From Candidatus Yonathbacteria bacterium (GTDB taxonomy: Bacteria; Patescibacteriota; Minisyncoccia; Phycocordibacterales; JACNGX01), in contig JAAXWR010000001.1 in NCBI GenBank assembly GCA_013334825.1, forward strand, positions 11,769 through 75,768: a stretch of DNA of 64,000 nt, given 5' to 3'. Below the pieces are notes generated by a model. That model saw nothing but the letters and a program-made list of their open reading frames with translations. It was not told the origin of the DNA and searched no databases. The position numbers and the translations under genes were made by a program. Below are positions 4,614-63,762 of this stretch, in pieces; the stretch's first letter is position 1; the number at the start of each line of letters is the position of its first letter.

Positions 4614-4666
4614 CACGTAGTGCATGCACTGTTGTCGGCATGTAGTTTTTTTGATATTGTGGTTAT

Positions 4667-6046
4667 ATGAATACACAAAAAACGATGGAAGATATTGTCG
4701 CATTTGCAAAACGTAAAGGATTCGTGTTTCAAGGATCTGAGATATATGGAGGTGCTGCGGGGTTGTATGATTTTGGTCCACATGGAGTGGAACTCTTGAA
4801 CAATATCAAAGCTTCATGGTGGAAAACGAATGTCCATGATAAACAGCAGTATTATGGACTTGATTCTGCCATGTTTAAAGACCCGCGTGTGTGGGAAGCG
4901 TCGGGACATGTGGGAGGATTTTCAGACCCGCTCGCGGAATGTCGGACTTGCAATACACGTATTCGTGTTGATAAAGAACTTGAACGTATTGGTGTTCATG
5001 CAGATGAAAAAATGAGTGAAGGAGATATTAACGCACTATTTACTCAACACAAAGCGAGCATTTCTTGTCCCAAATGTGGGGGACATGATTTTACAGATGC
5101 ACGTGCGTTTAATCTGCTTGTGAAGTCAAATCTTGGAGATTTTACATCCAAAGGTGATAATCCTGTGTATTTACCAGGAGAAGCGTGTCAGGGTATTTAT
5201 CTCAATTATAAAAATGTTGTTGACTCTATGCATCCGAGTATACCATTCGGTATTGCGCAAATAGGGAAGGCGTTTCGCAATGAGATTTCACCGCGTAATT
5301 TTTTGTTTCGTACTCGTGAATTCGAACAAGCGGATACGCAGTATTTTGTTCGTCCGCATGAAAATAAAGATGCATATGAAACAATTAAAAAAGACCGCTG
5401 GCAGTGGTATCTGTCGCTTGGTATTGATGAAAGCCATTTGCGCTGGAAGCAACATGAGAACCTTGTATTTTATGCTTCAGATGCGTGGGATATTGAGTAT
5501 GACTTTCCTACGTATGGGTTTGATGAAGTGGAGGGTATTCACGATCGTACCGATTATGATTTAACCCAACATACCAAGTATTCTGGTACTGATCTTTCGT
5601 ATAATGATAATGGTGAAAAATTTATTCCGTGGATTTTGGAAACATCGATGGGACTTGGTCGTGTGTTTCTCGCGGTATTGTCCGAGGCGTATGATGTTGA
5701 TGAACTTGGAGGGGAAGCGCGTACTGTCCTCCGCTTGCCGGGGCATGTAGCACCGGTTAAAGTTGCTGTTTTTCCTCTTGTCAAAAATAAGCCAGAGCTT
5801 GTGGAGAAAGCACGTGGAGTCTATAGCGAACTCAAGAAACATATTTCGACGGTTGCGTGGGATGATAATGGTAATGTAGGGAAGCGCTATCGGAGACAAG
5901 ATGAAATAGGAACTCCCTATTGCGTCACAATCGATTATGACACACTTGAGTCAGACACCGTAACCGTACGTGATCGCGATACAGGAGAGCAGATACGGAT
6001 GCCGATTGCGGAACTTGCATCATATATTGCTGAAAACATAAAGTAG
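4667..6046 (+). CDS. glyQS: glycyl-tRNA synthetase (class II, alpha2 type)
   Basis: 'FAKRKGFVFQGSEIYGGAAGLYDFGPHGVELLNNIKASWW' is a near-canonical GlyQS N-terminus. Class II motifs and a C-terminal anticodon-binding domain are present. Confidence 0.9.
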   Translation: MNTQKTMEDIVAFAKRKGFVFQGSEIYGGAAGLYDFGPHGVELLNNIKASWWKTNVHDKQQYYGLDSAMFKDPRVWEASGHVGGFSDPLAECRTCNTRIRVDKELERIGVHADEKMSEGDINALFTQHKASISCPKCGGHDFTDARAFNLLVKSNLGDFTSKGDNPVYLPGEACQGIYLNYKNVVDSMHPSIPFGIAQIGKAFRNEISPRNFLFRTREFEQADTQYFVRPHENKDAYETIKKDRWQWYLSLGIDESHLRWKQHENLVFYASDAWDIEYDFPTYGFDEVEGIHDRTDYDLTQHTKYSGTDLSYNDNGEKFIPWILETSMGLGRVFLAVLSEAYDVDELGGEARTVLRLPGHVAPVKVAVFPLVKNKPELVEKARGVYSELKKHISTVAWDDNGNVGKRYRRQDEIGTPYCVTIDYDTLESDTVTVRDRDTGEQIRMPIAELASYIAENIK

Positions 6047-8135: not shown

Positions 8136-9584
8136 ATGCCACACAATAAACCTTTTTATATTACTACCACGCTTCCGTATGTGAACGCCGATCCACATGT
8201 CGGTTTTGCAATGGAGATTATTCGCGCTGATGCTGTTGCGCGATACAAGACACTTCGTGGGTATGATGTATTCTTTAATACAGGCACTGATGAGCACGGG
8301 ATGAAGATGGAACGTGCAGCACGTGATGCGGGCAAGACACCACAAGCGTATGTGGATGCCTACGCGGAACGGTTTCGCGGACTCATTGACCTTCTCGGTA
8401 TTTCACCTGATGTACACTTTATTCGGACAACAGATGAACATCATATGCATGCCGCACAGGCATTTTGGAAGTTGTGTGCGGACAATGGATATATTTATAA
8501 AAAAGAATATGAAGCGAAATATTGTGTTGGGTGTGAATTAGAAAAAACTGACTCTGAATTGGTTGATGGACGATGTCCCGAACATCCAAACAAAGACATT
8601 GAGATTATTAAAGAAGAAAATTACTTTTTTAAATTTTCTGCATTTCAAGAGAAACTTCTTGCCTTGTATGAAGCGCGACCTGATTTTGTTCGTCCTGACG
8701 TACGTTTTAATAATATTAAAAAATTTGTTGAAGGGGGATTGCAAGATTTTAGTATTTCACGGTTGAAAGAAAAAATGTCATGGGGTATTCCTGTCCCTGG
8801 AGATGATGCACATGTGATGTATGTGTGGTTTGATGCACTGGTTAATTATGTTTCAACGCTCGGTTGGCCAGAAGATACAGAAACATTTTATAGATATTGG
8901 GGAGAGGGAAATCCCGTGCAGTATGCGGGCAAAGACAATCTCCGCCAGCAATCTGCTATTTGGCAGGCGATGCTTATGGCAGCAGGACTCCCTAATACAT
9001 ATACCGTCGTGATTGACGGATTTATCACGGGTGGCGGAGGAGTAAAGATGAGTAAATCACTCGGTAATGTGGTGAATCCGTATGATGTTGTGAGTGCGTA
9101 TGGAACAGATGCGCTCCGCTATTTCCTTTTGCGTCATGTGCACCCATTTGAGGATTCTGATTTTACCATGGAGCGATTTGCTGATGATTATACCGCTCAT
9201 TTAGTGAATGGACTGGGAAATCTTACGAATCGTATTCTCAAGATGAGTGAGACGTATGTTGACGAACCCGTACCTGTCATCAAGAAAAGACTCGAAGATT
9301 TTCCTACCTATTGTGAATCTGCCGATATGTTTGAATGGCATAAGGTTGCTGATAGTGTATGGGAAAAAGTGGGTGCAGCTGATGCACGTATTCAAGAATC
9401 TGAACCATTCAAACTGGTAAAGACTGATCCCGAAAAGGCAAAAAAGATTGTCGTGGAACTTGTGCAAGAACTTTCTGATATTGCCGTGCTTCTTGCGCCA
9501 CTTCTTCCTGAAACTGCACGCAAGATAGAGGAGGGGATTGCAAAGAATAAAAAACCAGAGTTACCACTTTTCGCGAGAAAGTAA
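8136..9584 (+). CDS. metG: methionyl-tRNA synthetase (minimal form)
   Basis: 'ADAVARYKTLRGYDVFFNTGTDEHGMKME' and 'KMSKSLGNVVNP' are MetRS signatures. 482 aa, no C-terminal dimerisation domain. Confidence 0.9.
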   Translation: MPHNKPFYITTTLPYVNADPHVGFAMEIIRADAVARYKTLRGYDVFFNTGTDEHGMKMERAARDAGKTPQAYVDAYAERFRGLIDLLGISPDVHFIRTTDEHHMHAAQAFWKLCADNGYIYKKEYEAKYCVGCELEKTDSELVDGRCPEHPNKDIEIIKEENYFFKFSAFQEKLLALYEARPDFVRPDVRFNNIKKFVEGGLQDFSISRLKEKMSWGIPVPGDDAHVMYVWFDALVNYVSTLGWPEDTETFYRYWGEGNPVQYAGKDNLRQQSAIWQAMLMAAGLPNTYTVVIDGFITGGGGVKMSKSLGNVVNPYDVVSAYGTDALRYFLLRHVHPFEDSDFTMERFADDYTAHLVNGLGNLTNRILKMSETYVDEPVPVIKKRLEDFPTYCESADMFEWHKVADSVWEKVGAADARIQESEPFKLVKTDPEKAKKIVVELVQELSDIAVLLAPLLPETARKIEEGIAKNKKPELPLFARK

Positions 9585-9645: not shown

Positions 9646-10038
9646 ATGAAAAATCTTATAAAAAAAGAAATTCTCTATCCAGAGCTTAGTTATATTATTA
9701 TGGGCTGTTTATTTAATGTTCATAATGAGATTGGGTCAGGACACAAAGAGAGAATCTACGAGAGGGCGGTTGCTGAAGCTTTTATAGAGAGAGGGCTCTC
9801 TTTTAAGGAACAAGTATACGTCCCTGTTATTTTTCATGATAAGTATGTGGGTAAATATTTTCTCGATTTTCTGGTCGATGGGAAAATTGTTGTTGAATTA
9901 AAAGCGGGCGATCAATTTCTGAAGAAAGATACAGATCAGATATTGAGATATTTGCAGATACATAATATTTCATTAGGTATTCTTGCGCGTTTTACATCTC
10001 GTGGAGTAATTGCAAAAAGGATAATACACATAAAATAA
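9646..10038 (+). CDS. GxxExxY family protein (PD-(D/E)XK nuclease-like)
   Basis: 130 aa. 'SYIIMGCLFNVHNEIGSGHKERIYERAVAEAF...VELKA' fits the GxxExxY architecture, with a variant G-x-x-E motif (GHKERIY). Confidence 0.65.
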   Translation: MKNLIKKEILYPELSYIIMGCLFNVHNEIGSGHKERIYERAVAEAFIERGLSFKEQVYVPVIFHDKYVGKYFLDFLVDGKIVVELKAGDQFLKKDTDQILRYLQIHNISLGILARFTSRGVIAKRIIHIK

Positions 10039-23905: not shown

Positions 23906-24110
23906 TCCGTCTGTCACCCTCAACCCTCCCGTCCGTCATCCTAAACCCTCTCGTCTGTCATCCTGAACTTTTACCTTGTCGAAGGAAGGTGATTCAATAT
24001 CTTGCCGTTGCAAGCCATCGAAACATTAGGTTAAACCTAGCGGAATACCGCTAGGTTTAACCTAATGTTTTTATTCGTACATTTGTGCATATTCGTTATT
24101 CGTAACCGTG
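23906..24110 (+). repeat. composite intergenic element copy 1 (modules B + C + A)
   Basis: B: 'gtcatcctgaacttttaccttgtcgaaggaaggtgattca', with three 21-bp direct repeats before it. C: the palindrome 'ttaggttaaacctagcggaataccgctaggtttaacctaa'. A: the ATTCGTA array. Confidence 0.8.
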
Positions 24111-25995: not shown

Positions 25996-26083
25996 TATAC
26001 CAAGGTTAAACCTAATCTATACCAACATTAAGAGTTGGTATAAGAGTCGGCATTTTATACCAAGGTTTAACCTTGGGAGCATA
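25996..26083. repeat. REP-like palindrome pair (REP1 'TACCAAGGTTTAACCTTGG' + REP2 'ATACCAACATTAAGAGTTGGTAT')
   Basis: Seen directly. Same families as at 29004, 38689, 39468, 43677 and 44945-45172. Confidence 0.75.
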
Positions 26084-27888: not shown

Positions 27889-28932
27889 CTATTTCTCTTT
27901 CTGCTTCTCATCAAGCGCTTTTCCAATTGCTTTTGCAATCTCATTACCAATTTTTTTGTTTTCTTTCAAAAACTCACGCGCCGCGTCATATCCGCGACCA
28001 AGTTTTTCTTCACCATACGCATATGATGAACCAGATTTATCGACGATACCAAATTGCTCTCCCAACATGAGCATCTCGCCTTCACGAGAAATCCCTTCGC
28101 CATAAACAATGTCAAACTCCGTCTGACGGAACGGGGCTGCGACTTTATTTTTGACAATCTTTACACGTGTCCGTGACCCAATCACTTCATCACCCTTTTT
28201 TACTTGCGCGATGCGACGGATATCCACGCGTACCGAAGTATAGAATTTGAGTGCTTTGCCACCTGGTGTTGTCTCAGGATTGCCAAACATCACACCGATT
28301 TGCATGCGGATTTGATTGATGAAGATGACGACCGTTTTTGTCTTGTCTACGATGGCGGTCAATTTGCGAAGCGCTTGACTCATGAGACGAGCTTGTTTGC
28401 CGACATGTTGTGCGCCCATGTCTCCTTCGATTTCATCACGTGGGGTGAGTGCCGCGACAGAGTCAATGACAATCACATCCATTTTACCTGAACGTACCAA
28501 ACTCTCGGCAATTTCAAGCGCTTGTTCACCGTTGTCTGGTTGGGCGATGAGAAGCTCATTTGTTTTGACTCCCAATTTGCGTGCGTAATCAGGGTCCATG
28601 GCATGTTCCGCATCAATAAATGCACAGAGGCCACCTTTCTTTTGTGCTTCGGCGACAACATGAAGTGCGAGCGTTGTTTTTCCAGATGATTCTGGACCAA
28701 AAATTTCAATGATACGACCACGAGGGAATCCACCCACACCGAGCGCATGGTCAATACCGATGGATCCAGAAGGAATAACGTCCACGTCCACGCGTGGTTT
28801 GTCACCGAGTTTCATGATGGCACCTTCGCCAAATTTCGTCTGAATCGCTTTGATCGTATCAGCAATATCGGTGTTGCCGTCACGTGAGGGGATCTCTGGA
28901 CGGGCTACTTTTGCTTTTTTGGGTGCAGGCAT
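27889..28932 (-). CDS. recA: recombinase RecA
   Basis: '[36 protein letters not shown]' with Walker A, L1/L2 loops and C-terminal tail. Confidence 0.95.
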
Positions 28933-29003
28933 AGTATTGAGAAAATAAATGAGTATCTGTGTATTATATCACGAGATATCCGAATGCGAATACAGCACAA
29001 GTC

Positions 29004-29190
29004 ATACCAGGGTTTAACCTTGGGAGCATATGCTATACCACCACTAAGAGTTGGTATAAAACGTAGGGTGCTGGATATACGTACGTATTCGTTATTCGTA
29101 AGCATTCTTGAAACTCGTCCGCCCCGTCCTTTCTTAAGAAAGGACGGGGCGGACGCGCGTGCTCCGCGTAGCGGAAACATCGCGGGAAAC
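29004..29190 (+). repeat. composite intergenic element copy 2 (REP1 + REP2 + module A + 40-bp GC palindrome + hairpin)
   Basis: Includes the perfect palindrome CGTCCGCCCCGTCCTTTCTT|AAGAAAGGACGGGGCGGACG at 29116..29155. A second copy of that palindrome is at 34875..34912. Confidence 0.8.
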
Positions 29191-30171: not shown

Positions 30172-30234
30172 GGGGCAAGCGTACGTATTCGTTATTCGTA
30201 AGCATTCTTGAAACTGACAACTTGAAACTCGTTC
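30172..30234 (+). repeat. module A copy at the 3' end of ftsK
   Basis: 'ggggcaagcgtacgtattcgttattcgtaagcattcttgaaactgacaacttgaaactcg'. Confidence 0.8.
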
Positions 30235-32549
30235 TACTCCCCATACCCTTCAGACTCAACACCCTTTCCCTCCAGCACTTCTCGTGGCTTTGCGCCTTCT
30301 CCCGGTCCCACGACACCACGTTCTTCAAGCATATCCATGAGACGTGCTGCGCGCGCGTATCCAACCTTCAGTTTGCGTTGCAAAAATGATGTGGATGCTT
30401 TTCCTGCTTCAATGACCGTTTGTCGCGCTTCTTCATACATGTCGTCATCGTCATCATCACCAAAGCCACCACCTGCGCCACCACGTTCATCAAGCGACCC
30501 ACTCATGATATCAGCGAGTGAGGATAAGGGCGATACGCCCGAAGGGTCAGAAATGGTAATGTCGTCAAAGTCTCCGCCAGAATACTCTTTGCGCAAGTAT
30601 GACACAATACGTTTGATTTCGTTTTCTGTGACGAATGCCGATTGAATACGCTGTGGTTGAGACATGTCACTTGAAAGATAGAGCATATCACCTGCGCCAA
30701 GAAGTTTTTCTGCGCCACCAGTATCAAGAATGGTACGTGAATCAATCTGCGATGAAACTTGAAGCGCGATACGTCCCGGAACGTTTGCCTTGATAAGACC
30801 GGTGATAACATTGACCGACGGACGCTGTGTGGAGAGAATAAGATGAATACCCACGGCGCGACTCATCTGCGCGAGACGAACAATTGCCGATTCCAATTCA
30901 CGCGGATACGTGGTCATGATGTCAGCGAGCTCATCAATAACGACAACAATATAGGGCATTGCTTCGGGAAGAGCGGCGCCATCGGGTGCGCCGTCATTCT
31001 GAGCAGCTTTATACGCGGGGGCAACAATATTTTCATGGTATGACGCGATATCTCGAACAGACTCTGATTCAAGAATGTCATAGCGACGATCCATTTCCTT
31101 GGCTGCCCATTTGAGAGCGAGGATAGCTTTTTTGGGTTCGGTAATGACAGGCGTCAGTAAGTGGGGGATGCCATTGTACATCGTGAGTTCGACGCGCTTT
31201 GGGTCAATCATGATAAAACGCATGCGCTCTGGACCATTCCTATATATAAGAGAAGCGAGAATGGCATGAATAGTTACCGACTTTCCCGAGCCAGTGGTTC
31301 CCGCGATAAGCATGTGGGGGAGTTTTGCGAGGTTTGCAAAGAACGATTGTCCCGAGATGCCACGTCCAAGAGCAAAGAGGAGAGGCTTTTCCGAACCGAC
31401 AAATTCAGGCGCGGAAAGAAGTTTTGCCAAGCCGATAGTACTGCGTGCCGAGTTAGGAACTTCAATACCGACAAGAGACTTGCCGGGAATAGGTGCTTCG
31501 ATACGTACAGGATGTGCCGCCAGAGCGAGACCGAGGTCGTTTTGGAGTCCGACAATGCGCGAGAGCTTGACCCCTTCGGCAGGTTTCAAAGCGTAACGAG
31601 TAACAGTTGGACCAACAGAAATTTCATCCATCTCAACGGTGATACCAAAGTTTTGCAGTGTGCGTTTGATGATGTTGGCGTTTGCCTTGATGTCTCCAAC
31701 TTCTGGTTTACCCTTGTCTACCGAAAGGAGAGAGACGGGTGGAGGAAGATACGTGCGATTCTGAAGAGGGTATGCACTCGTTGCCATTTTAGGAAGTTCT
31801 TCTTCGTCTTTTTTCTTTTTTCCAAAAAATCCTTGTGTGGGAGATGGTTCTTCCGGTGGAGTGTGCTCATCAGCAACTGGCGTAGGGGGGACGGGAGTGA
31901 GGGTATCTTCTTCTGTATCAGGGACAGTGATGAATGTGCCATCCTCTTCGTCCGACTTGGTACGGTTGCGAAAACGAAGAAGCCATGAGAGGGGAGGTCG
32001 TTCGGGTGAGAGCGGTTTATCAAAGATGAGGAGAAGAGAGATGATGATAAATGCAATGAGAAAGACCGATGCTGCGACCGCGTCAAAAAGTTTTACGAGA
32101 GGAGAGGCGAGCACTTTTCCAAGCCATCCACCGCCGGTGTTTCCTGAAAGAATGGAAGTGAGTCCAAGCGCAGAGACGAAGAAGAGAACTGCTCCCAGAG
32201 TTTTTGGCAGTGCAATGTGTTCGCGGGCATCTTCTGCGTCAAAGAGAGATGCTCCAACGAGGAAAAAGATGATAGGGAGGAACACATACCCTAACCCAAA
32301 GAATGCATCAAGTTCATCGAATGTAAATGTTCCCGCCATGCCTGCGATACCGAGTGCTGCGAGAATAAAAAAAACGCCGAGCACAAAAAAAAGAATACCG
32401 AGCATGCTACGTTTTGTCTCGCGTTTGATATTGAGACGAGGAGTTTTTTCTCCATTTGTATCAGATGATGTTCCGCGTTTTTTGACCGGAACGGGCGCCG
32501 GTTTCTTTTTTGGGGATTGTTTTTTAGAATCGTTTTTTGCCATATACAC
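30234..32549 (-). CDS. ftsK: DNA translocase FtsK/SpoIIIE
   Basis: N-terminal TM helices. 'LIAGTTGSGKSVTIHAILASLIYRNGPERMRFIMIDPKRVEL' is the FtsK motor. C-terminal gamma-like wHTH. Confidence 0.9.
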   Translation of the reverse strand: MYMAKNDSKKQSPKKKPAPVPVKKRGTSSDTNGEKTPRLNIKRETKRSMLGILFFVLGVFFILAALGIAGMAGTFTFDELDAFFGLGYVFLPIIFFLVGASLFDAEDAREHIALPKTLGAVLFFVSALGLTSILSGNTGGGWLGKVLASPLVKLFDAVAASVFLIAFIIISLLLIFDKPLSPERPPLSWLLRFRNRTKSDEEDGTFITVPDTEEDTLTPVPPTPVADEHTPPEEPSPTQGFFGKKKKDEEELPKMATSAYPLQNRTYLPPPVSLLSVDKGKPEVGDIKANANIIKRTLQNFGITVEMDEISVGPTVTRYALKPAEGVKLSRIVGLQNDLGLALAAHPVRIEAPIPGKSLVGIEVPNSARSTIGLAKLLSAPEFVGSEKPLLFALGRGISGQSFFANLAKLPHMLIAGTTGSGKSVTIHAILASLIYRNGPERMRFIMIDPKRVELTMYNGIPHLLTPVITEPKKAILALKWAAKEMDRRYDILESESVRDIASYHENIVAPAYKAAQNDGAPDGAALPEAMPYIVVVIDELADIMTTYPRELESAIVRLAQMSRAVGIHLILSTQRPSVNVITGLIKANVPGRIALQVSSQIDSRTILDTGGAEKLLGAGDMLYLSSDMSQPQRIQSAFVTENEIKRIVSYLRKEYSGGDFDDITISDPSGVSPLSSLADIMSGSLDERGGAGGGFGDDDDDDMYEEARQTVIEAGKASTSFLQRKLKVGYARAARLMDMLEERGVVGPGEGAKPREVLEGKGVESEGYGE

Positions 32550-32599: not shown

Positions 32600-32785
32600 T
32601 TCGCCCGTCATCCCGAGCTCCACGCCTTGCCGAAGCCTTGGCGAAGGAAGGTAATGTAAGATTTAGAGTTGCAAGTCGCCAAAACGTTAGGTTAAACCTA
32701 GCGGCGCTCCGCTAGGTTTAACCTAACGTTTTTATTCGTATATTCGTTCGTAAGCATTCTTGAAACTGACAACTTGAAACTCATC
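32600..32785 (+). repeat. composite intergenic element copy 3 (B + C + A)
   Basis: 'cgtcatcccgagctccacgccttgccgaagccttggcgaaggaagg', then 'ttaggttaaacctagcggcgctccgctaggtttaacctaa', then the ATTCGTA array. Confidence 0.8.
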
Positions 32786-34774: not shown

Positions 34775-34970
34775 CGAAGTCTGTCATCCTGAACTTTTTA
34801 CCTTGCCGAAGCCTTGGCGAAGGAAGGTGATTCAGGATCCACGGAGTCGTCCGTCGTTTCGTTTCTTGAAACTTGTCCGTCCCGCCCTTTCTTAAGAAAG
34901 GGCGGGACGGACCCGCGCGCTCTGCGTAGCAGAGACGTCGCGGGAAACTGACAACTTGAAACTCGTCAAG
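34775..34970 (+). repeat. composite element copy 6 (B + 38-bp GC palindrome + hairpin + partial A)
   Basis: 'gtcatcctgaactttttaccttgccgaagccttggcgaaggaaggtgattcaggatcc', then 'gtccgtcccgccctttcttaagaaagggcgggacggac', then 'gaaactgacaacttgaaactcg'. Confidence 0.8.
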
Positions 34971-38639: not shown

Positions 38640-38895
38640 CCAATCTGCCATACCAAAGCCCACACCAACTCTTCCAACAGTCTGTTTCCCGTACCAAGGT
38701 TAAACCTTGGTAGCGTCGTCCGTCATCCTGAAAAAAGGAGTGTCATCCTGAACTCGATTCAGGATCCACGAAGTCGTCAGTTTCATCTATCGTAGTCTAG
38801 TCGTATTCGTACATTCCCCAGCACCACGTAGGGCGCGGGGCAGGCGTACGTATTCGTTATTCGTTTCCCGTATCAAGGTTAAACTTTGGTAAAAA
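38640..38895 (+). repeat. composite element copy 7 (REP2-like + REP1 + B + A + REP1-like)
   Basis: 'ccgtaccaaggttaaaccttggtagcg' at 38689, B module from 38715, A module from 38800. Confidence 0.75.
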
Positions 38896-38960: not shown

Positions 38961-39413
38961 TTGCAAATCATGGATAATCTATTGTTGCTCGCTGTACAGG
39001 CGATTGTTGGAGGTATTCTCTATTGTGTGAGATTCCCTCAAAAAAAGTATGACATGGCACGCGTTATTACGTATGCCATAGTGTACGTTGCAATGGTCGG
39101 GGAAGCCCTGGGACTTCTCTTTGGACTTTTTTTAGAGGGGGCAATTTTTTCCTCCATGACAATGTTGCTCTTTATCGTCTTCGCATTTTCAATGCGGGGA
39201 TGGGACATTGTCGCCAACGATATCATGGCGAAAACGGGTGCAAATTTTTTTTCCGTGCATATGTGCATGGGAAGCATCGCACTCATTTCGCTCACTGGAA
39301 CTATCCTTGGTCCGGTGATCATGATTATGTTTGCAGCAATTTTTACAGGGGCCATCGTGTTTTTCATGGTGATGCTCTCTGCATTTATCGCCCCGCATAT
39401 TGCGGGGAAGTGA
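38961..39413 (+). CDS. hypothetical 4-TM membrane protein
   Basis: 150 aa, four hydrophobic helices. Same terminator-plus-repeat module downstream as the S-layer gene. Confidence 0.5.
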   Translation: MQIMDNLLLLAVQAIVGGILYCVRFPQKKYDMARVITYAIVYVAMVGEALGLLFGLFLEGAIFSSMTMLLFIVFAFSMRGWDIVANDIMAKTGANFFSVHMCMGSIALISLTGTILGPVIMIMFAAIFTGAIVFFMVMLSAFIAPHIAGK

Positions 39414-39452: not shown

Positions 39453-39640
39453 GTTATGTCCCAACCCGCAATACCAACATTTCTGTACCAACTCTTAATG
39501 TTGGTACAGAGTTGGTATCCTATACCAAGGTTAAACCTCGGGAGTATCTTCTGTCATCCTGAACTTTTTACCTTGCTGAAGCCTTGGCGAAGGAAGGTGA
39601 TTCAGGATCTATGGAGCCGTCCGTCATCTGTTCGTCTCTC
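39452..39640 (+). repeat. composite element copy 8 (REP2 + REP1 + B)
   Basis: 'gtaccaactcttaatgttggtac' palindrome, then 'tataccaaggttaaacctcggg', then 'gtcatcctgaactttttaccttgctgaagccttggcgaaggaaggtgattcaggatc'. Confidence 0.8.
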
Positions 39641-43206: not shown

Positions 43207-43641
43207 ATGCAGAAAAAACAAAAAGGAATTATCATTATTATAGGATCATTTTTTTTAGGACTCTTTCTTACAAGTTTGTATAATCTTCACATATGTCAGT
43301 CGCGGGGTGTCTTTTGTGGAGATATTCTTGGTGAAATGATTGGGCAGACGTTGGGATTCTTCTCCCTTGCCGCACTCCTTCCCGTCATCATCCTCTCTTT
43401 TATGAAAGAAGAGGTCTATGAAAGATGGTGGAAATTCGCAAAAAAATATCTTATCATTTCCGCAATTCTTATCGTCATTACTCCTTCAACAAGTAGTGGT
43501 ATGCTTGGGGGTCTTGGCGCGGGTGGGGGATATGACCGCGAAGGAATGATATGGTTTCTCACGGGACTCTTTTTCGTCATTTCCGTGATCCTTATTCCTG
43601 TCAAAGCGTGGCAATTACGAAACACGTCATCGAAAAAATAA
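43207..43641 (+). CDS. small 4-TM membrane protein, paralog 1
   Basis: Shares 'WWKFAKKYLIISAILIV...GGLGAGGGYDRE...WFLTGLFFVISVILIPVKAW' with 43693..44178. More distantly related to 44447..44905. Confidence 0.6.
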   Translation: MQKKQKGIIIIIGSFFLGLFLTSLYNLHICQSRGVFCGDILGEMIGQTLGFFSLAALLPVIILSFMKEEVYERWWKFAKKYLIISAILIVITPSTSSGMLGGLGAGGGYDREGMIWFLTGLFFVISVILIPVKAWQLRNTSSKK

Positions 43642-43676
43642 ACTATTTCCGTGATGATTGATGTCCTTATTGTTTC

Positions 43677-43702
43677 GTACCAAGGTTAAACCTTGGTAGC
43701 GT
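43677..43702. repeat. REP1 palindrome CGTACCAAGGTTAAACCTTGGTAGCG
   Basis: Seen directly, between paralogs 1 and 2. Confidence 0.8.
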
Positions 43703-44178
43703 TATTACCAATTTATTTTTTTACCAATATGAAATTAAAACCTCTTTCTAACAGACATTCTGGCTATTTGATGTTGATATCTCTTGTTTTGTTTTTTGCG
43801 GGAATGGTTACAGGGGCTCCTCAGTGGTTCGGGCTGTGTCGGATGTTTGATTTTGGGTGTTATGACTTCTATAGATATCATTTTAGTTATCTCTGGTGGT
43901 TCTCCATCTTTATGCCCGTTCCGTTCCTTCTTGGTCTCATGTCATGGGTAAAAAACAAATCTGAAAAAGTATTCATGGCATGGTGGAAATTTGCTCGCGT
44001 CTATATACCCATAGCGCTCATCCTTATCGTCCTCTCTGACGGAGGCGGAGCACTCAGTGGACTTGGCGCCGGAGGTGGTTTTGACCGTGAGATAACTATC
44101 TGGGTTACTGCAGTTATTTTCTTTCTCATTACCTTCATCCTCCTTCCACTCAAATTCAAAACATATAAAAACGCTTAA
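43693..44178 (+). CDS. small 4-TM membrane protein, paralog 2
   Basis: 'WWKFARVYIPIALILIVLSDGGGALSGLGAGGGFDREITIW'. Confidence 0.6.
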   Translation: MVALLPIYFFTNMKLKPLSNRHSGYLMLISLVLFFAGMVTGAPQWFGLCRMFDFGCYDFYRYHFSYLWWFSIFMPVPFLLGLMSWVKNKSEKVFMAWWKFARVYIPIALILIVLSDGGGALSGLGAGGGFDREITIWVTAVIFFLITFILLPLKFKTYKNA

Positions 44179-44446: not shown

Positions 44447-44905
44447 ATGAAACATAAAAAACAACTGAAAATTATTGAAGGACTTTTGTTTATCTCTTTC
44501 ATTTTTATTGGTGGGATTAGATTTTGGAATGAGGTTTTTGTGAATGACTGTATGTCAATATACAGAAATATCTTTCGCTGTGCTGATGTTTCTCTTTTTG
44601 GTGAACACGCTGAGTATATGCTCATATCTCTTTCTTTGTTTTTCTCCATCTTACCACTCCTCTTTCTAAAAGAGACGATATATAATATTTGGAAAAATTT
44701 TGCAGTTGTTGCTTTTCCTCTCCTTTTGCTTCTCGTCTTCACAACACCAGAATCAAGTGGGGGATTGTTCGGACACACAAGTCTCTTTATTCGTGAAGAG
44801 ATTGCTCTCTACTGCTCCATCCTCTTTCTCATCCTTTCCTACATCATTATTGCCGTACAAGCGTGGAGACACGGGGGGAATAAAAGCACTTCTTCGTGTA
44901 TTTAA
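44447..44905 (+). CDS. small 4-TM membrane protein, paralog 3 (divergent)
   Basis: 'WKNFAVVAFPLLLLLVFTTPESSGGLFGH...IIIAVQAWRHGG' parallels paralogs 1 and 2. The 3' end overlaps a second duplicated fragment of the lipase gene tail. Confidence 0.5.
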   Translation: MKHKKQLKIIEGLLFISFIFIGGIRFWNEVFVNDCMSIYRNIFRCADVSLFGEHAEYMLISLSLFFSILPLLFLKETIYNIWKNFAVVAFPLLLLLVFTTPESSGGLFGHTSLFIREEIALYCSILFLILSYIIIAVQAWRHGGNKSTSSCI

Positions 44906-44950
44906 AAAACACATTGAGACATTGGTGAATCCAAAACTTCCCGCATTTCC
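44880..44950 (+). other. second duplicated fragment of the lipase gene 3' region (about 70 nt)
   Basis: 'aaagcacttcttcgtgtatttaaaaaacacattgagacattggtgaatccaaaacttcccgca' matches 42960-43025 (encodes KALLRVF.K.IETLVNPKLPA). Confidence 0.7.
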
Positions 44951-45175
44951 GTACCAAGGTTTTCCGTACCAAGGTTAAACCTTGGTAGCGCCTCACCCAT
45001 CTTTGTATGTCAAGTATGTTTACGCAGGTTAAACCTTGGTATAAATACCAAGGTTTAACCTGCGTAAACTATCGCGAATCATTTTCGTCTTCTGTACCAA
45101 GGTTAAACCTCGGTGACGGATTTTTGTCTGTCAACATGTTGAATGTTTATACCAAGGTTTAACCTTGGTATAATG
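44945..45175. repeat. cluster of 5 REP1 palindromes immediately upstream of the RAYT gene
   Basis: Copies at about 44950, 44965, 45018-45071 (nested 52-bp perfect palindrome GTTTACGCAGGTTAAACCTTGGTATAAATACCAAGGTTTAACCTGCGTAAAC), 45093 and 45147. The last carries a TATAAT -10 eight bp before the ATG. Confidence 0.85.
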
Positions 45176-45180
45176 CGTGT

Positions 45181-45900
45181 ATGTTAAGAGATGCTCCCTT
45201 TGTTGAAGGAGAAATATACCATCTATATACGCGTGGTGTTGAAAAAAGAGAGATATTTCTTTCTGATTTTGATCGTAAGAGATTTCAATTATCATTATTT
45301 CTTTCAAATAACAATCATGCAGGGATGCAGATAAGAAATACAATAAAGATTTTTGAAGATAATGGCGCCACTAGTTGGGGAAAGATTTATCAAGAATACG
45401 AAAAAGGGGAGCCATTTGTGGATATTCTCGCCTATGTTCTTATGCCTAATCATTTTCACATACTCGTAAAAGAGCATATACCTGAGGGTGGTGGAATTTC
45501 AAAGTTTATGCAGAAAATCATGAATAGTCATACAGGATATTTTAATAAAGCTAATGAGCGTACAGGTGCATTATTTGAAGGGACGTTCAAGAGTAAACAT
45601 GTAAATGACGAGGCATATTTTCGTTGGTTGTTTTCATATATTCATCTCAATCCACTCAAGTTAATTGAACCCGGATGGCGGGAAGGTATTATTCGCGATA
45701 TGCCCCGCGCGATCCAATTTTTGAATAATTACGCGTGGTCAAGTTTCCCCGACTACGCCGGAGTGGAACGCCCCGAAGGTGTTATTCTTACCAAAGATGC
45801 TCTGCCAGAATATGTTACATTAGTAAAAGACGTTGAAGGTCTTATTGCTGAACGTGCGACACATATACCAAGTGATACAAGGCGTATGCGTTTTTCATGA
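45181..45900 (+). CDS. REP-associated tyrosine transposase (RAYT; IS200/IS605 Y1 HUH transposase-like)
   Basis: 'ILAYVLMPNHFHILVKEHIPEGGGISKFMQKI' holds the HUH motif (HFH). 'YFRWLFSYIHLNPLKLIEPGW...YAWSSFPDY' holds the catalytic Tyr motif. This closely parallels E. coli YafM 'LPEHMHCIWTLPEGDDDFS...YIYINPVKHGW...WPFSSF'. Confidence 0.85.
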   Translation: MLRDAPFVEGEIYHLYTRGVEKREIFLSDFDRKRFQLSLFLSNNNHAGMQIRNTIKIFEDNGATSWGKIYQEYEKGEPFVDILAYVLMPNHFHILVKEHIPEGGGISKFMQKIMNSHTGYFNKANERTGALFEGTFKSKHVNDEAYFRWLFSYIHLNPLKLIEPGWREGIIRDMPRAIQFLNNYAWSSFPDYAGVERPEGVILTKDALPEYVTLVKDVEGLIAERATHIPSDTRRMRFS

Positions 45901-46023
45901 TCATATTTTTTCATTGGTATATGTTTTTGTTAGATGGGCTATCAAGTTATGTTTAGTGAGATATTATCTTTCGATTGAAATGAAGAATGGTATGAATTTG
46001 TTGTAAGTTGGTAGCGCGGCGGG

Positions 46024-46060
46024 CATGCGTGCCCGCCGCGCCGCTTTGTTATGGTCAGAA
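46024..46060 (+). terminator. rho-independent terminator after RAYT
   Basis: GCGCGGCGGGC-ATGCGT-GCCCGCCGCGC, followed by TTTGTT. Confidence 0.65.
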
Positions 46061-52467: not shown

Positions 52468-53401
52468 ATGTGTATGAACATTTCACGTATCGATAAAACA
52501 TCACGAAAGTGGTAGTAACGCAAATTAATATAGCGGTATATTATTTTTGAATAGTAACATATTGGATATTGAAAATTGTTTGTGATTTGGTATTTTGCAT
52601 TTGTCATTTCAATCACGAGTGATAGAGAAGATTTGATAAGAGAAAAAGAATTTTTTTTTACACACCTCTTTTCTTGTAACATGATAGTCATGTTCTCTAT
52701 AGTTTCGTGTATGTCTATGTTCGTTCTACATGCATGTTGCATGGTTTCCGCATGGTCTTTGAGAGTCATATCGATTTAAAAATTAACACTGTATATACGC
52801 TATCTTTGAAGTTTCGTCTATAACCGATGACCTCTTACCTATTTCCTAAACAAAACGCTTGACATTATTTTTCATTCGATTATACTAGCCGGTACGTATG
52901 GTAATGAACTTCACACGCAGGCGGCAATAAGAACACCGACTCGGGGTTCCTATTGTCCGCCCTCGCGGCGGTTTTTCATTATCAGACGGGCTCGTTGTCA
53001 ACTGAAGAAGATATCAAGAGTCTTAATCGTCTAGGGGAAATGTGAAGCGCTTCGTGCGTCGACATTTCCCGAACAAAGGAATGTATCCTTTGCAACACGC
53101 CAAGCGCGACGCATTGCTTCGCGCTTGGCGTAAAAAGAAACGCGGTTAAGGGCATACGGTGGATGCCTAGACTCTCAGAGGCGATGAAGGACGTGGCATG
53201 GCTGCGATAATCTTCGGCGAGGTGCCCAGCAACCTACGACCCGGAGGTCTCCGAATGGGGAAACCCTATCCGGTAAACCCGGATAGTCTCGGTATTATAT
53301 CGAGACGCAAACCAGGGGAAGTGAAACATCTCAGTACCCTGAGGAAAAGAAACCAATAGGAATTCCCTAAGTAGCGGCGAGCGAAACGGGAAGAGCCCAA
53401 A

Positions 53402-53726
53402 CCGAGCACCACTCTTTGATTTTAAGGTATACTATTCACATGTGGGTGGTATACATCATTCAGCAATCTTTTTCCAAAGAGATATATGTAGGAGTGACGA
53501 GTGATTTAACCAGAAGAATGGAAGAACATAACTCTCACAGAAAAGGATCCTATACGCGGAGAAAGAATGAATATGAATGGGTTCTTGTTTATGCCGAAGC
53601 ATATCGGGATAAACAAGATGCATATGTACGTGAGTTTCGTTTGAAACAACGTGGACGTGCAAAACAGGAAGTCCTTAAGAGAGCAGCACGAAGTCTGCTT
53701 CCTTAAAATCAAAGAGTGGTGCTCGG
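53402..53726 (+). other. 23S IVS 1 (domain I) bounded by 25-bp perfect inverted repeat, encoding a GIY-YIG protein
   Basis: CCGAGCACCACTCTTTGATTTTAAGG ... CCTTAAAATCAAAGAGTGGTGCTCGG. Confidence 0.8.
53440..53706 (+). CDS. GIY-YIG nuclease family protein (YhbQ-like), encoded inside 23S IVS 1
   Basis: 'MWVVYIIQQSFSKEIYVGVTSDLTRRMEEHNSHRKGSYTRRK...WVLVYAEAY' matches small GIY-YIG proteins (GIY...YVG, R, E, N). Confidence 0.8.
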   Translation: MWVVYIIQQSFSKEIYVGVTSDLTRRMEEHNSHRKGSYTRRKNEYEWVLVYAEAYRDKQDAYVREFRLKQRGRAKQEVLKRAARSLLP

Positions 53727-53941
53727 GGTCGTAAGGCGGTAATGTCGCTTTTATAGTGAGAGATACGTGTGAAGGTTAATGGAACCGACTGGGAAGTCGG
53801 ACCCTAGAGGGTAATAGTCCCGTACATGAAAACCAGATCCGATCTTTGTTACCGTTCTTGAGTACTCCAAGACACGAATAGCTTGGGGGAATTCGCCGGA
53901 ACTAACCGGCAAGGCTAAATACTCTGAGAGATCGATAGTGA

Positions 53942-53975
<34 letters not shown>

Positions 53976-54026
53976 GGAGAGGGGAGTGAAATAGATCTGA
54001 AACCGTATGCCTACAAGGAGTCGGAG

Positions 54027-54131
54027 CCGAGCACCACTTTTGCTAAAGATGTGTTTATTCGAAATGTTATTGTGAGAAATTACAATATGTTTTTGTATTG
54101 AAATAACATCAGAAGTAAAAGTGGTGCTCGG
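54027..54131 (+). other. 23S IVS 2 at the helix-25 site, ORF-less
   Basis: 'ccgagcaccacttttgc' ... 'agtaaaagtggtgctcgg', inserted between UACAAG..GGAGC and GUGAC. This is a classic IVS site. Confidence 0.75.
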
Positions 54132-54744
54132 TGACGGCGTGCCTATTGAAGAATGAGCCAACGAGTTGATGTATGCGGCTTGGCTAAGTCCTTGTCGGAC
54201 GGAGCCGTAGGGAAACCAAGTGTGAATAGCGCGTATTTGGTCGTATACATCAGACCCGAAGCCAGATGAGCTTGCCATGAGCAGGGTGAACGCAACGGAG
54301 ACGTTGCGGGAGGCCCGAACCAGTTGGTCGTGCAATTCCATTGGATGACTTGTGGTAAGGAGTGAAAAGCTAATCGAATCTGGTAATAGCTGGTTCTCTC
54401 CGAAACAGCTTTAGGGTTGGCGTCGCGTGATCCTTCCGGGGGTAGAGCACTGGAAGGAACAAACAGGGGGAAACCTCGTTGTTCCTATCAAACTCCGAAT
54501 ACCGGAAATTATAGCGCGGCAGTTAGACTCCGGGGGCGAAGCTCCGGTGGTCGAAAGGGAAACAGCCCAGATCGCAATCTAAGGTCCCTAAATCTATACT
54601 CAGTACACTTAAGGAGGTGAAATTTCTCAGACAATGAGGAGGTTGGCTTAGAAGCAGCCATCCTTTAAAGAAAGCGTAACAGCTCACTCATTCAGAGATC
54701 TTGCGCCGCAGATGATCGGGGTTAAGTATAGTACCGAAGGTGCG

Positions 54745-54846
54745 GGCCCAGCTCCACTTTTGTTTATGACTTGTTGTACATCATATCGTCTTCCAAGATG
54801 TTATATATGTATGAACAAAAAGTCATGAGTAAAAGTGGGGCTGGGC
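54745..54846 (+). other. 23S IVS 3 at the helix-45 site, ORF-less
   Basis: 'cccagctccacttttg' ... 'taaaagtggggctggg', inserted after GUACCGAAGGUGCGG. Confidence 0.7.
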
Positions 54847-55556
54847 GGTAGGAGAGCGTTCCTGTCCGCGATGAAGCCCAAGCGTGAGCTTTTGGGTGGA
54901 GCGTCAGGAAGTGAGAATGTTGGCACAAGTAACCGCAAGGAAGGTGAAATCCCTTCCCGCCGAAATACCGAGGTTTCCTTCGCAATGTTAATCAACGAAG
55001 GGTTAGTCGGGCCTAAGGAGATGGTGAAAACCGTATCCGATGGACACATGGTTAATATTCCATGACCCGCATGCGTTCCGATGGAGTGACGGAGCGTTGT
55101 ACTGTGAGCAAATAATCGGATTTTTGTCCGTGCCGTGAGGATGGTTCCATAGGTAAATCCGGGAACCGCTAGTCCAAGCGGAGCGGAAATTCTGCGGTTC
55201 GCCGTAGGAGATTCACAGGAGCACGCTTCCAAGAAAAACTTCTCAGGTTAAACGTATGCGGACCGTACCGCAAACCGACACAGGTGGTAGAGTCGAGAAG
55301 ACTAAGGCGAACGAGTGATAATTCCCCAAGGAACTCGGCAAAAAAGCAGCCGTAACTTCGGAATAAGGCTTTCCAGCTCTTTCTTCGGAAAGGGCTGGAT
55401 GCAGCGAAAGTATCTCTGGCGACTGTTTATCAAAAACACAGCTCCCTGCGAACTCGCAAGAGGATGTATAGGGGGTGACGCCTGACCAATGCCGGAAGGT
55501 CAAACATGGATGGTCCAAGGGACGCAAGTTTTTTGGGCTGGGCTATGTAAGCCCCG

Positions 55557-55607
<51 letters not shown>

Positions 55608-55920
55608 TGGTAAGTTCAGACCCGCACGAATGGCGCAACGATCAGAGAACTGTCTCGGGGAACAGCTCGGTGAAAATACAGTACCGGTGAAGATGCCGGT
55701 TACCTACAGCTAGACGAAAAGACCCCAGGAGCTTTACTGCAACTTCATATTGGGTATGTGCTCTTACTGCGTAGAATAGGTGGGAGGCTTTGAAGCGGTT
55801 CTTTTGGGAGCCGTGGAGCCGACAGTGAAATACCACTCTGTAAGGGGGCATATTCTAACCCGTACGGCAAAACCGTGCGGAGACAGTGTGTGGTGGGTAG
55901 TTTGAGTGGGGCGCTCTCCT

Positions 55921-56288
55921 TCGGGATGGCATATGTGTAAACATATGGTATCCCGAAACAGGAGCGCCTCCGAGGTATCATCCGGTACCTGAAACAAATA
56001 AATGAGGGGGACGCCATACGGTAACGTATGTGTCGTGAACCAAGCTATATGCCGGAATATCCGAGTATCTTTTGTGTCGTTCTTCTCATTATGAAGAGAA
56101 CGGAACAGTACAAAAGTGCGGACAATCGGCAGGGAAGATGTATATGACAACATGTCTACATCCCCTCAGAGGCCATACGCTTGGATTCCTTGTTAAACAA
56201 GGAATAAGAGATGGTCCGATCTTCATGGCGACATGGAGTGTATATCAACCCGTTGATATACGGCCACTATTCATACTAGTGGTACCAG
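55921..56288 (+). mobile_element. about 370-nt insertion in 23S domain V (between GGGGCG.UCUCC and CCUAAA..UAACGGAGGAG), possible ORF-less group I intron
   Basis: The flanking exon sequence is continuous with the canonical 23S. The insert ends in G. No credible ORF. Confidence 0.45.
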
Positions 56289-56624
56289 TATGCCTAAACT
56301 GTAACGGAGGAGTCTAAAGGTTGGCTAGGCGCGAATGGACACCGTGCCGATAGTGTAATGGCACAAGCCAGCTTGATTGCGAGGCGTACATGCCGAGCAG
56401 GTGCGAAAGCAGAGCATAGTGAACCGATGGTTCGCTTTAGACGCGGCCAGAGATTAACGGATAAAAGCTACCCTGGGGATAACAGGCTAGTTCCGCCTAA
56501 GCGTTCAGAGCGACGGCGGAGTTCGGCACCTCGATGTCGGCTCAACTTATCCCGGGGCTGGAGAAGGTCCCAAGGGTTTGGCTGTTCGCCAATTAAAAAG
56601 TTACGCGAGCTGGGTTCAGACCGT

Positions 56625-56975
56625 TCAGGGGCGTATGATATGCGTATGCATGTCATAGGCCTCTGAACCAATCTGAACCCGAGGAAGACATCAATACGGC
56701 GGCATCATATAGCAATATATGATGAGAAGTTAACTGATATCGGTGAAATCCTTTTCACATGACCAGAAAAGGACAATACCGAGGGAATTATATTGTTTAC
56801 AATATATGCCCGTAGAGACTGCACGTTAACCGCCCAGCTTCATTTTTATCGCAAGGTGAGAGTGAATAAACCATGTTAAAAAGTGGTGCTGGGATGAAGA
56901 TATAGTCCGATCCCGTTGGTAACAGCGGTGTCATTCATAAAATCATATAAAGTATCTATGAATGGCTACATCATG
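56625..56975 (+). mobile_element. about 350-nt insertion at the L2593 (I-CreI-type) site of 23S, probable ORF-less group I intron
   Basis: 5' exon '...gggttcagaccgT', then the insert, which ends in G, then 3' exon 'cgtaagacaggttggtctcctatctgc' (= CGUGAGACAGUUCGGUCCCUAUCUGC). The upstream exon nucleotide is U and the terminal nucleotide is G, consistent with group I. Confidence 0.5.
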
Positions 56976-57412
56976 CGTAAGACAGGTTGGTCTCCTATCT
57001 GCTGTAGGCGTTGATTCTTGAGAAGATCCGTTCGTAGTACGAGAGGACCCGAATGGACTAACCTCTGGTGTACCGGTTGTTCCGCCAGGAGCACGGCCGG
57101 GTAGCTATGTTGGGAATGGATAACCTCTGAAAGCATCTAAGAGGGAAGCCAACTTCAAGATGAGGAATCGTTTGAAACTCCTCAGAGATGATGAGGTTGA
57201 TAGGCACCAGGTGGAAGCGCAGTGATGCGTTGAGCCGAGGTGTACTAATGCGTTGACGCGTTTCTTCTTGCGCCAAGCGCGGTTTGATGCCGCGCGGCGT
57301 GTTGCAAGCACTCTTTTTGTTCGGGAAATGCCGGCGTATGCCGCGTTTCCCAGACGTTGATTTTTTGATATCTTTTTCAGGGCACTTACGATTATTATAT
57401 AGTCGCATGTTG

Positions 57413-57526
57413 TGTTCCGGTGATTCGTCGGAGGGGTCACACCCGGTCTCATTCCGAACCCGGCAGTTAAGCTCTCTTGAGGCGATGATACTCCTTCGGG
57501 GGGAAAGTAGCTCGTCGCCGGAACAC
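57413..57526 (+). rRNA. rrf: 5S ribosomal RNA
   Basis: 'gttccggtgattcgtcggaggggtcacacccggtctcattccgaacccggcagttaagc...gtcgccggaac' with a terminal helix and the loop C/E pattern. Confidence 0.8.
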
Positions 57527-63440: not shown

Positions 63441-63762
63441 GATGTTGATTTTTTTGATTATTCAAATTTGTTTCCGTGTCGGATAATACCACAGATAATT
63501 GGATTATTCAATGATATAGATTTTGATAATGCGTGGAGTTTTTATCCATCACAAAATTACGTTTTTTTGATGCATCTGTTGTCTTTCCTAAATCGCTTGA
63601 CTCTGAACTCGACCTGTGTATAATAGGGTGACGCTCGAATACGGGCGGCTCTTTGACAAGAGAATAAGCCAACGTCTATTAAGTAGTAGAGACAAAGAAA
63701 TGCCCTTTCTTTTGTCTCGTTCGTGTGAGTGTATCGACTTCGGTCGACACATTCATTTTTAA

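Follow-up and report, generated by a model that had tools for sequence, protein, structure and literature searches.

The 64-kb window analysed here, the whole stretch of 64,000 nt that was read, belongs to a Candidatus Yonathbacteria chromosome (Parcubacteria, Candidate Phyla Radiation, CPR) and probably carries a unit of the REPtron or TIRtron kind, in which one gene for a Y1 HUH/tyrosine nuclease is accompanied by a family of short palindromes. A first-pass annotation of the same sequence had proposed a REP-associated tyrosine transposase (RAYT) with its own repetitive extragenic palindromes (REPs) beside the gene and in other intergenic regions, and this proposal was supported by searches of the window and of the loci of homologous genes.

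Nuclease gene and palindromes in the window

The protein has the fold and the catalytic motifs of a Y1 HUH nuclease. Its gene, RAYT/TIRYT-like, is a 239-aa open reading frame (ORF) with an ATG start on the + strand (45181..45900), and both motifs named by the first-pass annotation were confirmed, the HUH motif NHFH at residues 90-93 (nt 45448-45459, +) and the tyrosine motif YIHLNP at residues 153-158 (nt 45637-45654, +). Homology to Y1 transposases, which had been proposed as a check, was found with the Pfam model Y1_Tnp (PF01797) at 29.1 bits against a cutoff of 23. No other Pfam domain was found in the protein at E up to 1, and a C-terminal helix-turn-helix or Bac_DnaA_C-like domain, a feature of TIRYTs, was not detected by the Pfam search. 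The tail is helical in the AlphaFold (AF2) model (predicted local distance difference test, pLDDT, 93.3) and contains an SS motif at residues 187-188. H91, H93, Y153 and N157 were invariant among 44 aligned homologues, as were an N-terminal YH.Y.RG block and some residues of the tail. H91 and H93 would hold the metal and Y153 would act as the nucleophile; N157 corresponds in position to N119 of Escherichia coli TnpAREP.

A search of PDB sequences with the single nuclease sequence gave no match, and a PDB profile search gave only borderline ones (E ~0.07, ISDra2 TnpA and 4ER8), so that a comparison of folds was needed. The closest structure was 4ER8, a complex of E. coli TnpAREP with a REP hairpin, and the fold was nearer to TnpAREP than to the TnpA of IS200/IS605. 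The nuclease family is large, with no fewer than 1,327 clusters at 50% identity (profile search, E <=1e-30), and its named members are nearly all Parcubacteria. The window holds one copy of the gene and no fragments, and no tnpB was found near it.

The palindromes are real, non-random in number and extragenic. The palindrome TACCAAGGTTWAACCTTGGTA was found in the window at 11 sites with up to 3 mismatches, against 0.00 expected from 100 shuffles, and the core AGGTTWAACCT was matched exactly 14 times where 0.03 were expected; with two near-matches, at 29015 and 38881, the number of copies with this core rises to 16. Eleven of these lie beyond the gene-proximal cluster, across eight other spacers, against ~0 expected. 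All positions listed in the first-pass annotation proved real (~25996, 26056, 29003, 38690, 39521, 43676, 44965 and 45149); its list had missed a copy at 38869-38892 and the doublets at 24021-24070 and 32681-32732. Its description of the copies as dispersed across the window holds in that other intergenic sites are occupied, but these are limited to 24.0-45.2 kb: a profile search of the window found no copy elsewhere, and the repeat stretch of 21 kb ends at the nuclease gene, leaving the other 43 kb without copies. All window copies lie between likely genes. The intergenic bias that had been put forward as a check was also found over the window and 28 metagenome loci together, where 16% of the copies fell inside stop-free frames of at least 100 codons, against 82% of random positions.

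The 230 bp upstream of the gene (44950-45172) hold five palindromes, as had been annotated, plus a half copy. The half copy, CGTACCAAGGTTT (44950..44962, +), is a direct repeat, or stutter, that precedes a full copy and breaks at the loop apex. It is followed by a type A copy, CGTACCAAGGTTAAACCTTGGTAG(CG) (44965..44988, +), a head-to-head, REPIN-like doublet (REPIN, REP doublet forming a hairpin; 45018..45069), a type A variant, TGTACCAAGGTTAAACCTCGGTGA (45093..45116, +), and the gene-proximal palindrome, ATACCAAGGTTTAACCTTGGTATA (45149..45172), the 3' arm of which continues into a -10 box. The doublet is the nested perfect palindrome of 52 bp that had been noticed before (25+2+25 nt, 100% complementary); either arm by itself is an imperfect palindrome and the pair is perfect. 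As single-stranded DNA it folds at -27.7 kcal/mol (z = -12.6), and the gene-proximal copy forms a hairpin at -10.3 kcal/mol (z = -7.9). Over the window, single copies gave hairpins of -6 to -10 kcal/mol and doublets ~-28 kcal/mol, with z below -10. An arrangement as inverted doublets had been put forward as a check, and the window holds three 52-bp head-to-head doublets. On the downstream side of the gene only a remnant of a flanking REP was seen, CATTGGTATATG (45912..45923, +), which is weak at 12 nt and can be aligned to the 3' arm of an intact REP behind the orthologue in locus L128; of the complete REP/RAYT system that had been claimed, the upstream palindromes stand, and the downstream side is reduced to this remnant.

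Single copies of type A were also found at 43676..43699 (+), separating two paralogous small membrane-protein genes, at 38690..38713 (+), 3' of the terminator-like hairpin after a 1163-aa gene, and, in degenerate form, at 38869..38892 (+), just 5' of the promoter-like site of the gene at 38961. Copies of type B are accompanied by a second palindrome family, TACCAAC..(TTAAG/CTAAG)..GTTGGTA. The type B copy at 39521..39545 (+; TATACC..CGGGAGT) lies 3' of a terminator-like hairpin and adjoins the second-family palindrome 39486-39506; the one at 29003..29027 (+), upstream of recA and kept at the orthologous site in L149, is close to the second-family palindrome 29036-29056; and a mosaic spacer at 25996..26080 (+) consists of a partial REP (25996-26014), the second-family palindrome TACCAACATTAAGAGTTGGTA (26020-26040) and a type B REP (26056-26080). 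A perfect nested doublet of the 52-bp build stands at 24021..24070, 41 nt past the stop of a Mur-ligase gene, and another of 52 bp, with the core TAGGTTAAACCTA, stands at 32681..32732 in the spacer between the divergent ftsK and 32861; the latter folds as single-stranded DNA at -27.9 kcal/mol and has a near-identical counterpart in L132. These two doublets have the core AGGTTWAACCT alone in common with the other copies.

Type A was defined as (TTTCC)CGTACCAAGGTTAAACCTTGGTAGCG (five copies) and type B as TATACC..GGGAG(C/T)AT (three copies), the remaining subtypes being the promoter copy and the doublets. The repeats begin at their 5' ends with CGTACC, TATACC or CATACC, and GTAG is confined to the 3' arm and flank (GGTAGCG) in three copies. 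All asymmetric single copies (8/8) have the same orientation, on the + strand, and the GC skew of the + strand is positive over the whole window. The central A/T base was considered as a marker of orientation and dropped, since copies with the same flanks differ (26056 T, 39521 A). Terminators were rejected as an identity for the repeats; because the copies lie mostly after terminator-like hairpins and have no T-tract 3', they are neither terminators nor likely mRNA elements. Rfam at gathering thresholds gave nothing at the repeats, and in the window only rRNA and group I introns. A 15-mer, TACCAAGGTTWAACC, was compared with a genome collection of 596 Gb and gave at least 120 single matches in unrelated taxa, where ~2,000 chance matches were estimated.

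Homologue loci, gene contexts and mosaic spacers

Seventeen loci that encode homologues of 36-70% identity were read. The association of gene and palindrome extends across many lineages: at most of these loci a palindrome stands beside the gene, often on both sides. The gene has its own palindrome against it in L123, L124, L128, L129, L130, L131, L126, L143, L145, L159, L136, L134, L161 and L162, and both flanks are occupied in L130, L143, L145, L159, L136, L161 and L162; the more distant homologues L130, L131, L126, L161 and L162 have a palindrome or inverted repeats on either side. In close relatives (60-70% identity) the arrangement is unchanged and the interior of the palindrome differs, the gene-proximal palindromes being TATACCAACACTTAGTGTTGGTATAAT in L123, TATACCAAAGGTAAGCTTTGGTATAAT in L124, TATACCAAAGTTAAACTTTGGTATAAT in L128 and CAGTAAGGTTTAACTTTGCTAGAAT in L129. 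In each of these four the ATG follows the palindrome by 6-7 nt, and a 52-bp head-to-head doublet lies upstream. Among 12 palindromes from different loci, a set picked for being palindromes, 8/10 stem pairs change on both sides, a value reached in 0/500 shuffles.

The exact 21-mer was found on 28 metagenome contigs (~200 kb in total, 28-50% GC), and on six of the 28 a homologue lies within ~600 nt of a copy. The homologues on these contigs share 36-50% identity with the window protein and, for the most part, 40-55% with one another. Copies of the palindrome family abut both gene ends in L143, L156, L145, L159 and L136. The 3' copy overlaps the ORF end in L143, L159, L136 and L161, and in L159, L136 and L143 it encodes the last residues (..TKV), with the TAA stop coming from its loop. 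So deep a conservation of a single palindrome is uncommon among REPs and suggests that recognition by the protein imposes a constraint. The exact 21-mer was absent from 2.9 million viral contigs, and there was therefore no sign of a phage origin in the contigs scanned.

The gene-proximal palindrome runs into a promoter-like site of the nuclease gene, TTTATA-17-TATAAT with TG, whose extended -10-like element TGGTATAAT (45166..45174, +) ends 6 nt before the ATG. This element is a putative promoter, and its distance from the ATG suggests a leaderless mRNA. The earlier claim that the last REP supplies the TATAAT -10 gained comparative support, as the succession of palindrome arm, TATAAT, 6-7 nt and ATG recurs in six other loci (the box being TAGAAT in one), with the palindrome at the same gene-proximal place in L123, L124, L128, L129, L130 and L143. 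Seven other homologue loci have kept a box like TATAAT, 6-7 nt upstream of the ATG.

Nuclease genes of the family stand in at least three contexts, each kept between divergent genomes (proteins only 45-60% identical): recA-ftsK...gene...L10-L12 in the window, L124 and L126, where synteny holds with homologues at 45-66% identity; sigma-DUF8128-YceG-gene-MnmA in L127 and L131; and a place adjoining gapdh-rpiB-rpe-tkt in L160 and L161. Vertical inheritance is favoured by these conserved contexts and by the single copy in the window, and a domesticated, mostly vertically inherited gene fits better than an active insertion sequence. The housekeeping neighbours in the window are a Mur ligase, recA (27889-28932, -), ftsK (30234-32549, -) and two proteins of ~1,150 aa, with ribosomal proteins L10 and L7/L12 downstream.

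Contigs of close relatives (L132, L139, L149, L147 and L155; 87-95% nt identity) have repeat subtypes in common with the window, with arrays in which seven copies stand within 320 nt. They differ from it in module content and gene order exactly at repeat-bearing spacers. In L149 recA abuts the gene at 39.6 kb of the window (window junction 28993/39632), and in L132 the gene at 44.9 kb abuts the gene at 29.2 kb (window junction 44873/29203); the genes so joined stand 10-15 kb apart in the window, and the junctions lie in palindrome-bearing spacers. Two independent Logan short-read assemblies of the same organism (L121 and L122, position 1) break off within the repeat cluster, 265 bp 5' of the gene, which is consistent with a multi-copy repeat breaking short-read assembly and would explain these assembly breaks.

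The spacers further hold repeated GC-rich hairpins and common stretches after terminator-like hairpins, and their mosaic build resembles, by analogy, the bacterial interspersed mosaic elements (BIMEs) of E. coli. In L123 (70% identical) the second palindrome family, and not AGGTTWAACCT, abuts the nuclease gene (8676-8760 and 9680-9910). The 12-mer ATTCGTTATTCG, often extended to CGTATTCGTTATTCGTAA, forms a separate repeat module with nine intergenic copies, eight of them on the + strand (8047, 9591, 10086, 24091, 29087, 30187, 34031, 34309 and 38852). A GC-rich palindrome of 40 bp, (C)GTCCG(C/T)CCCG(T/C)CCTTTCTT..AAGAAAGG.., occurs in the window at 29116-29155 and 34875-34912, in L149 at ~4490-4530 and in L132 at ~4050-4090; it is terminator-like, yet a repeat family. 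A module of ~140 nt, like a miniature inverted-repeat transposable element (MITE) and bounded by the inverted repeats CCAGCCCCACTTTTAC / GTAAAAGTGGGGCTGG, was seen in L132 (~2660-2790 and 4155-4300) and L149 (~4560-4680), and has one 16-mer match in the window, at 54829-54844 within the span of the 23S rRNA gene. The nuclease gene is followed by a terminator-like GC-rich hairpin, GCGCGGCGGGCATGCGTGCCCGCCGCGC (46005-46050), preceded by TTGGTAGCG, the 9-mer that ends type A palindromes.

Three tandem genes for small membrane proteins, apparent paralogues, lie upstream of the repeat cluster (43207-43641, 43693-44178 and 44447-44905). The first two have GLGAGGG(Y/F)DRE in common, palindrome copies stand between and after the genes, and the third gene is further duplicated in L132 and L139. 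The 23S rRNA gene (53136-57267) measures 4,132 nt against a model of 2,925 nt and contains two group I introns (55967-56238 and 56671-56929) as well as other inserts, which carry ORFs on the minus strand. It is followed by 5S (57416-57523), and 16S begins downstream at 63758, with protein-coding genes between; no tRNAs were found in the window.

Proposed mechanism and alternative explanations

We infer catalysis, repeat mobilisation, promoter use and autoregulation in the following form. Wherever DNA becomes single-stranded, as at the replication fork, the palindromes of 21-26 nt would fold into hairpins. The enzyme would bind the hairpin, and the strand would be cut and rejoined beside or within it via a 5'-phosphotyrosyl link to Tyr153. 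Single palindromes or head-to-head doublets would thereby be copied to other intergenic sites, and copying over time would give rise to a local family, now of 16 or more copies, and to the BIME-like mosaic spacers. Hairpin formation or enzyme binding at the gene-proximal -10 copy would feed back on the expression of the nuclease.

Half-copy stutters bear on the site of cutting. The unit (GTACCAAGGTTTCCC)n precedes a full copy in the window (44950), in L147 (3270-3320) and in L132 (1625-1650), and (AACCTTGGTAGAGTCA)2 was found in L157 (1295-1340). In each case a half-palindrome and its flank are repeated directly 1-2 times beside a full copy, and the break always falls at the loop apex. The stutters could be the mark of a nick site or of replication slippage; by analogy with Rep-type HUH proteins the apex position might point to a nick inside the hairpin loop, unlike that of IS608 TnpA or E. 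coli TnpAREP. A wider interpretation is possible but doubtful, namely that a loop-nicking enzyme and its hairpin form an ancient, vertically inherited module across Parcubacteria, in which the AGGTT-N-AACCT type, with its covarying derivatives, would be bound to the subclass-2.1-like enzyme down to ~36% identity, and the palindrome, lying in the promoter and stop codon of the gene, would seed mosaic repeats and synteny breaks in genomes of <1 Mb.

Several results weigh against a REPtron- or TIRtron-like unit. The NCBIfam model REP_Tyr_transpos (NF047646) gave 43.2 bits against a cutoff of 80, below the equivalog cutoff, so that of the YafM-type RAYT that had been annotated the RAYT-kind Y1 HUH nuclease stands and the YafM-type equivalog does not. 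The 5' GT[AG]G foot of canonical REPs is absent from the window repeats, and in the profile alignment to 4ER8 LFEG lies opposite IWQP, an F taking the place of the W in the WQ motif (W94/Q95), which is the GTAG-reading region of the E. coli enzyme (PMC6006769). For TnpAY1 subclass 2.1, which the motifs of the nuclease match, no REP-like sequences were found by Quentin et al. (PMC6006769). The repeats in the window are one-sided, upstream of the gene, and confined to 21 kb. L127 has the -10 box only, with the palindrome absent, and L160 has degenerate copies. The choice of the covariation set brings ascertainment bias, and the apparent rearrangements could be real or could be assembly chimeras at the repeats.

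Three other explanations were weighed. An autonomous minimal element of the IS200 kind (hairpin, tnpA, hairpin) that moves whole, with the solo palindromes as debris or MITE-like derivatives, would account for the many homologues bracketed by inverted copies of the same palindrome, for the 3' copies that overlap the ORF end in L143, L159, L136 and L161, and for the occurrence of the family in at least three different chromosomal contexts. We regard it as unlikely: there is one copy in 64 kb, without fragments, the contexts are kept among divergent proteins, which fits vertical descent, and solo palindromes far outnumber genes. The motif, moreover, is Y---NP and not the Y---Q of IS200 transposases, tnpB is absent, and the downstream end is decayed in the window.

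The conserved overlap of the gene-proximal copy with a promoter-like site could instead point to duplex operator or promoter sites of a dimeric regulator, TTGGTATAAT being merely a strong extended -10 and the Y1 gene a member of the regulon that does not act on the repeats. TATAAA or TAAAAT follows some other copies, and symmetric changes of half-sites would mimic stem covariation. Many copies, however, have no -10 box and end in GGTAGCG or GGGAGC, some follow a stop codon or occupy convergent spacers, and palindromes stand on the 3' side of the Y1 gene too. The 52-bp doublets, the arrays of 7 in 320 nt and the half-copy stutters likewise speak against operators, as does the presence of the gene on 6/28 exact-21-mer loci, far above the random rate for a once-per-genome gene, and this explanation is quite improbable. 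A signal for DNA uptake or another host function across Parcubacteria, or plain terminators, beside the Y1 gene by chance, is scarcely credible. An identical 21-mer kept at 28-50% GC beside proteins 36-50% identical would be typical of lineage-wide signals, but the copies are sparse and local, 43 kb of the window being free of them, their linkage to the Y1 gene is tight in independent lineages, and as terminators they lack a T-tract and usually follow terminator-like hairpins.

Comparison with known systems

The REPtron of E. coli, reportedly described by Nunvar in 2010 and by Ton-Hoang and Messing in 2012 (the last with PDB 4ER8), is said to pair TnpAREP (RAYT, YafM) with REP/BIME sequences. 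The window nuclease resembles TnpAREP in its core of HUH and Y---NP, its best structural match and its single copy, and as with REP/BIME its gene abuts short extragenic palindromes that are found elsewhere too, in inverted pairs and mosaic spacers. It differs in sequence (12% identity) and in a tail that is 75 aa longer and has the SS motif. Unlike E. coli REPs, the window repeats are AT-rich perfect 21-mers, with the arms of doublets 2-4 nt apart; unlike in the E. coli REPtron, the palindrome forms the -10 box of the gene and in relatives its stop codon, and the host belongs to the CPR. REPINs are said to have been described in Pseudomonas and Enterobacteria by Bertels and Rainey in 2011. Like them, the window doublets consist of two inverted REPs that give a long hairpin, with imperfect arms and a perfect pair (45018-45069), but the spacer is 2-4 nt against tens of nt, and there are three doublets only among 16 copies. 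The unit is a variant of the REP/RAYT systems in which the narrow tests of a canonical RAYT failed (equivalog cutoff, 5' GT[AG]G foot and WQ motif).

IS200/IS605 transposases (subclass 1.1) are marked by Y---Q, a length of ~150 aa, multiple near-identical copies and often tnpB. Unlike the TnpA of IS608 and ISDra2, the window nuclease has NP and not Q after the tyrosine and is ~90 aa longer, and it occurs as a single copy in conserved synteny, without tnpB, with the same palindrome at both flanks and not distinct ends.

The E. coli RAYT belongs to TnpAY1 subclass 2.2, and Y---NP is the tyrosine signature of class 2 (PMC6006769). Subclass 2.1 is characterized by NH[YF]H, Y[IV]HLNP, an SS motif in the tail and a median length of 238 aa (Quentin 2018, PMC6006769); it equals RAYT Group 1 (Bertels 2017, PMC5581495) and largely overlaps the TIRYTs (Di Nocera 2013, PMC3733652). 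The inverted repeats on either side of TIRYT genes can be self-complementary, can extend over the ends of the gene and can make up modest families (PMC3733652). With 239 aa, NH[YF]H, Y[IV]HLNP and the SS tail, the nuclease fits subclass 2.1 or the TIRYTs rather than the subclass 2.2 of E. coli, an assignment by motif match only. The terminal inverted repeat (TIR) consensus GGGGWSAS was not seen in the flanks of the gene. The first-pass annotation had placed REP/RAYT systems mainly in Proteobacteria, but REP-associated Y1 genes were already known from Cyanobacteria and Bacteroidetes (PMC6006769). A search of the literature available for REP, RAYT or IS200 palindromes in CPR, Patescibacteria or Parcubacteria found no relevant report among the papers covered.

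Among bacterial replicators that are long-lived and vertically inherited, REP/RAYT systems are the best case; they have been studied almost only in Gammaproteobacteria. The genome of the CPR host is strongly reduced, and repeated DNA is unexpected there; the palindromes may contribute to intergenic mosaicism and to rearrangements in CPR genomes and offer a concrete substrate for biochemistry on subclass-2.1-like enzymes. For subclass 2.1 (Group 1), the largest RAYT-like group, the DNA partner was not known before. Unlike subclass 2.1 as reported, the window nuclease has an associated palindrome family, and at the window locus and related ones a clear hairpin partner, which covaries, accompanies an enzyme like those of subclass 2.1.

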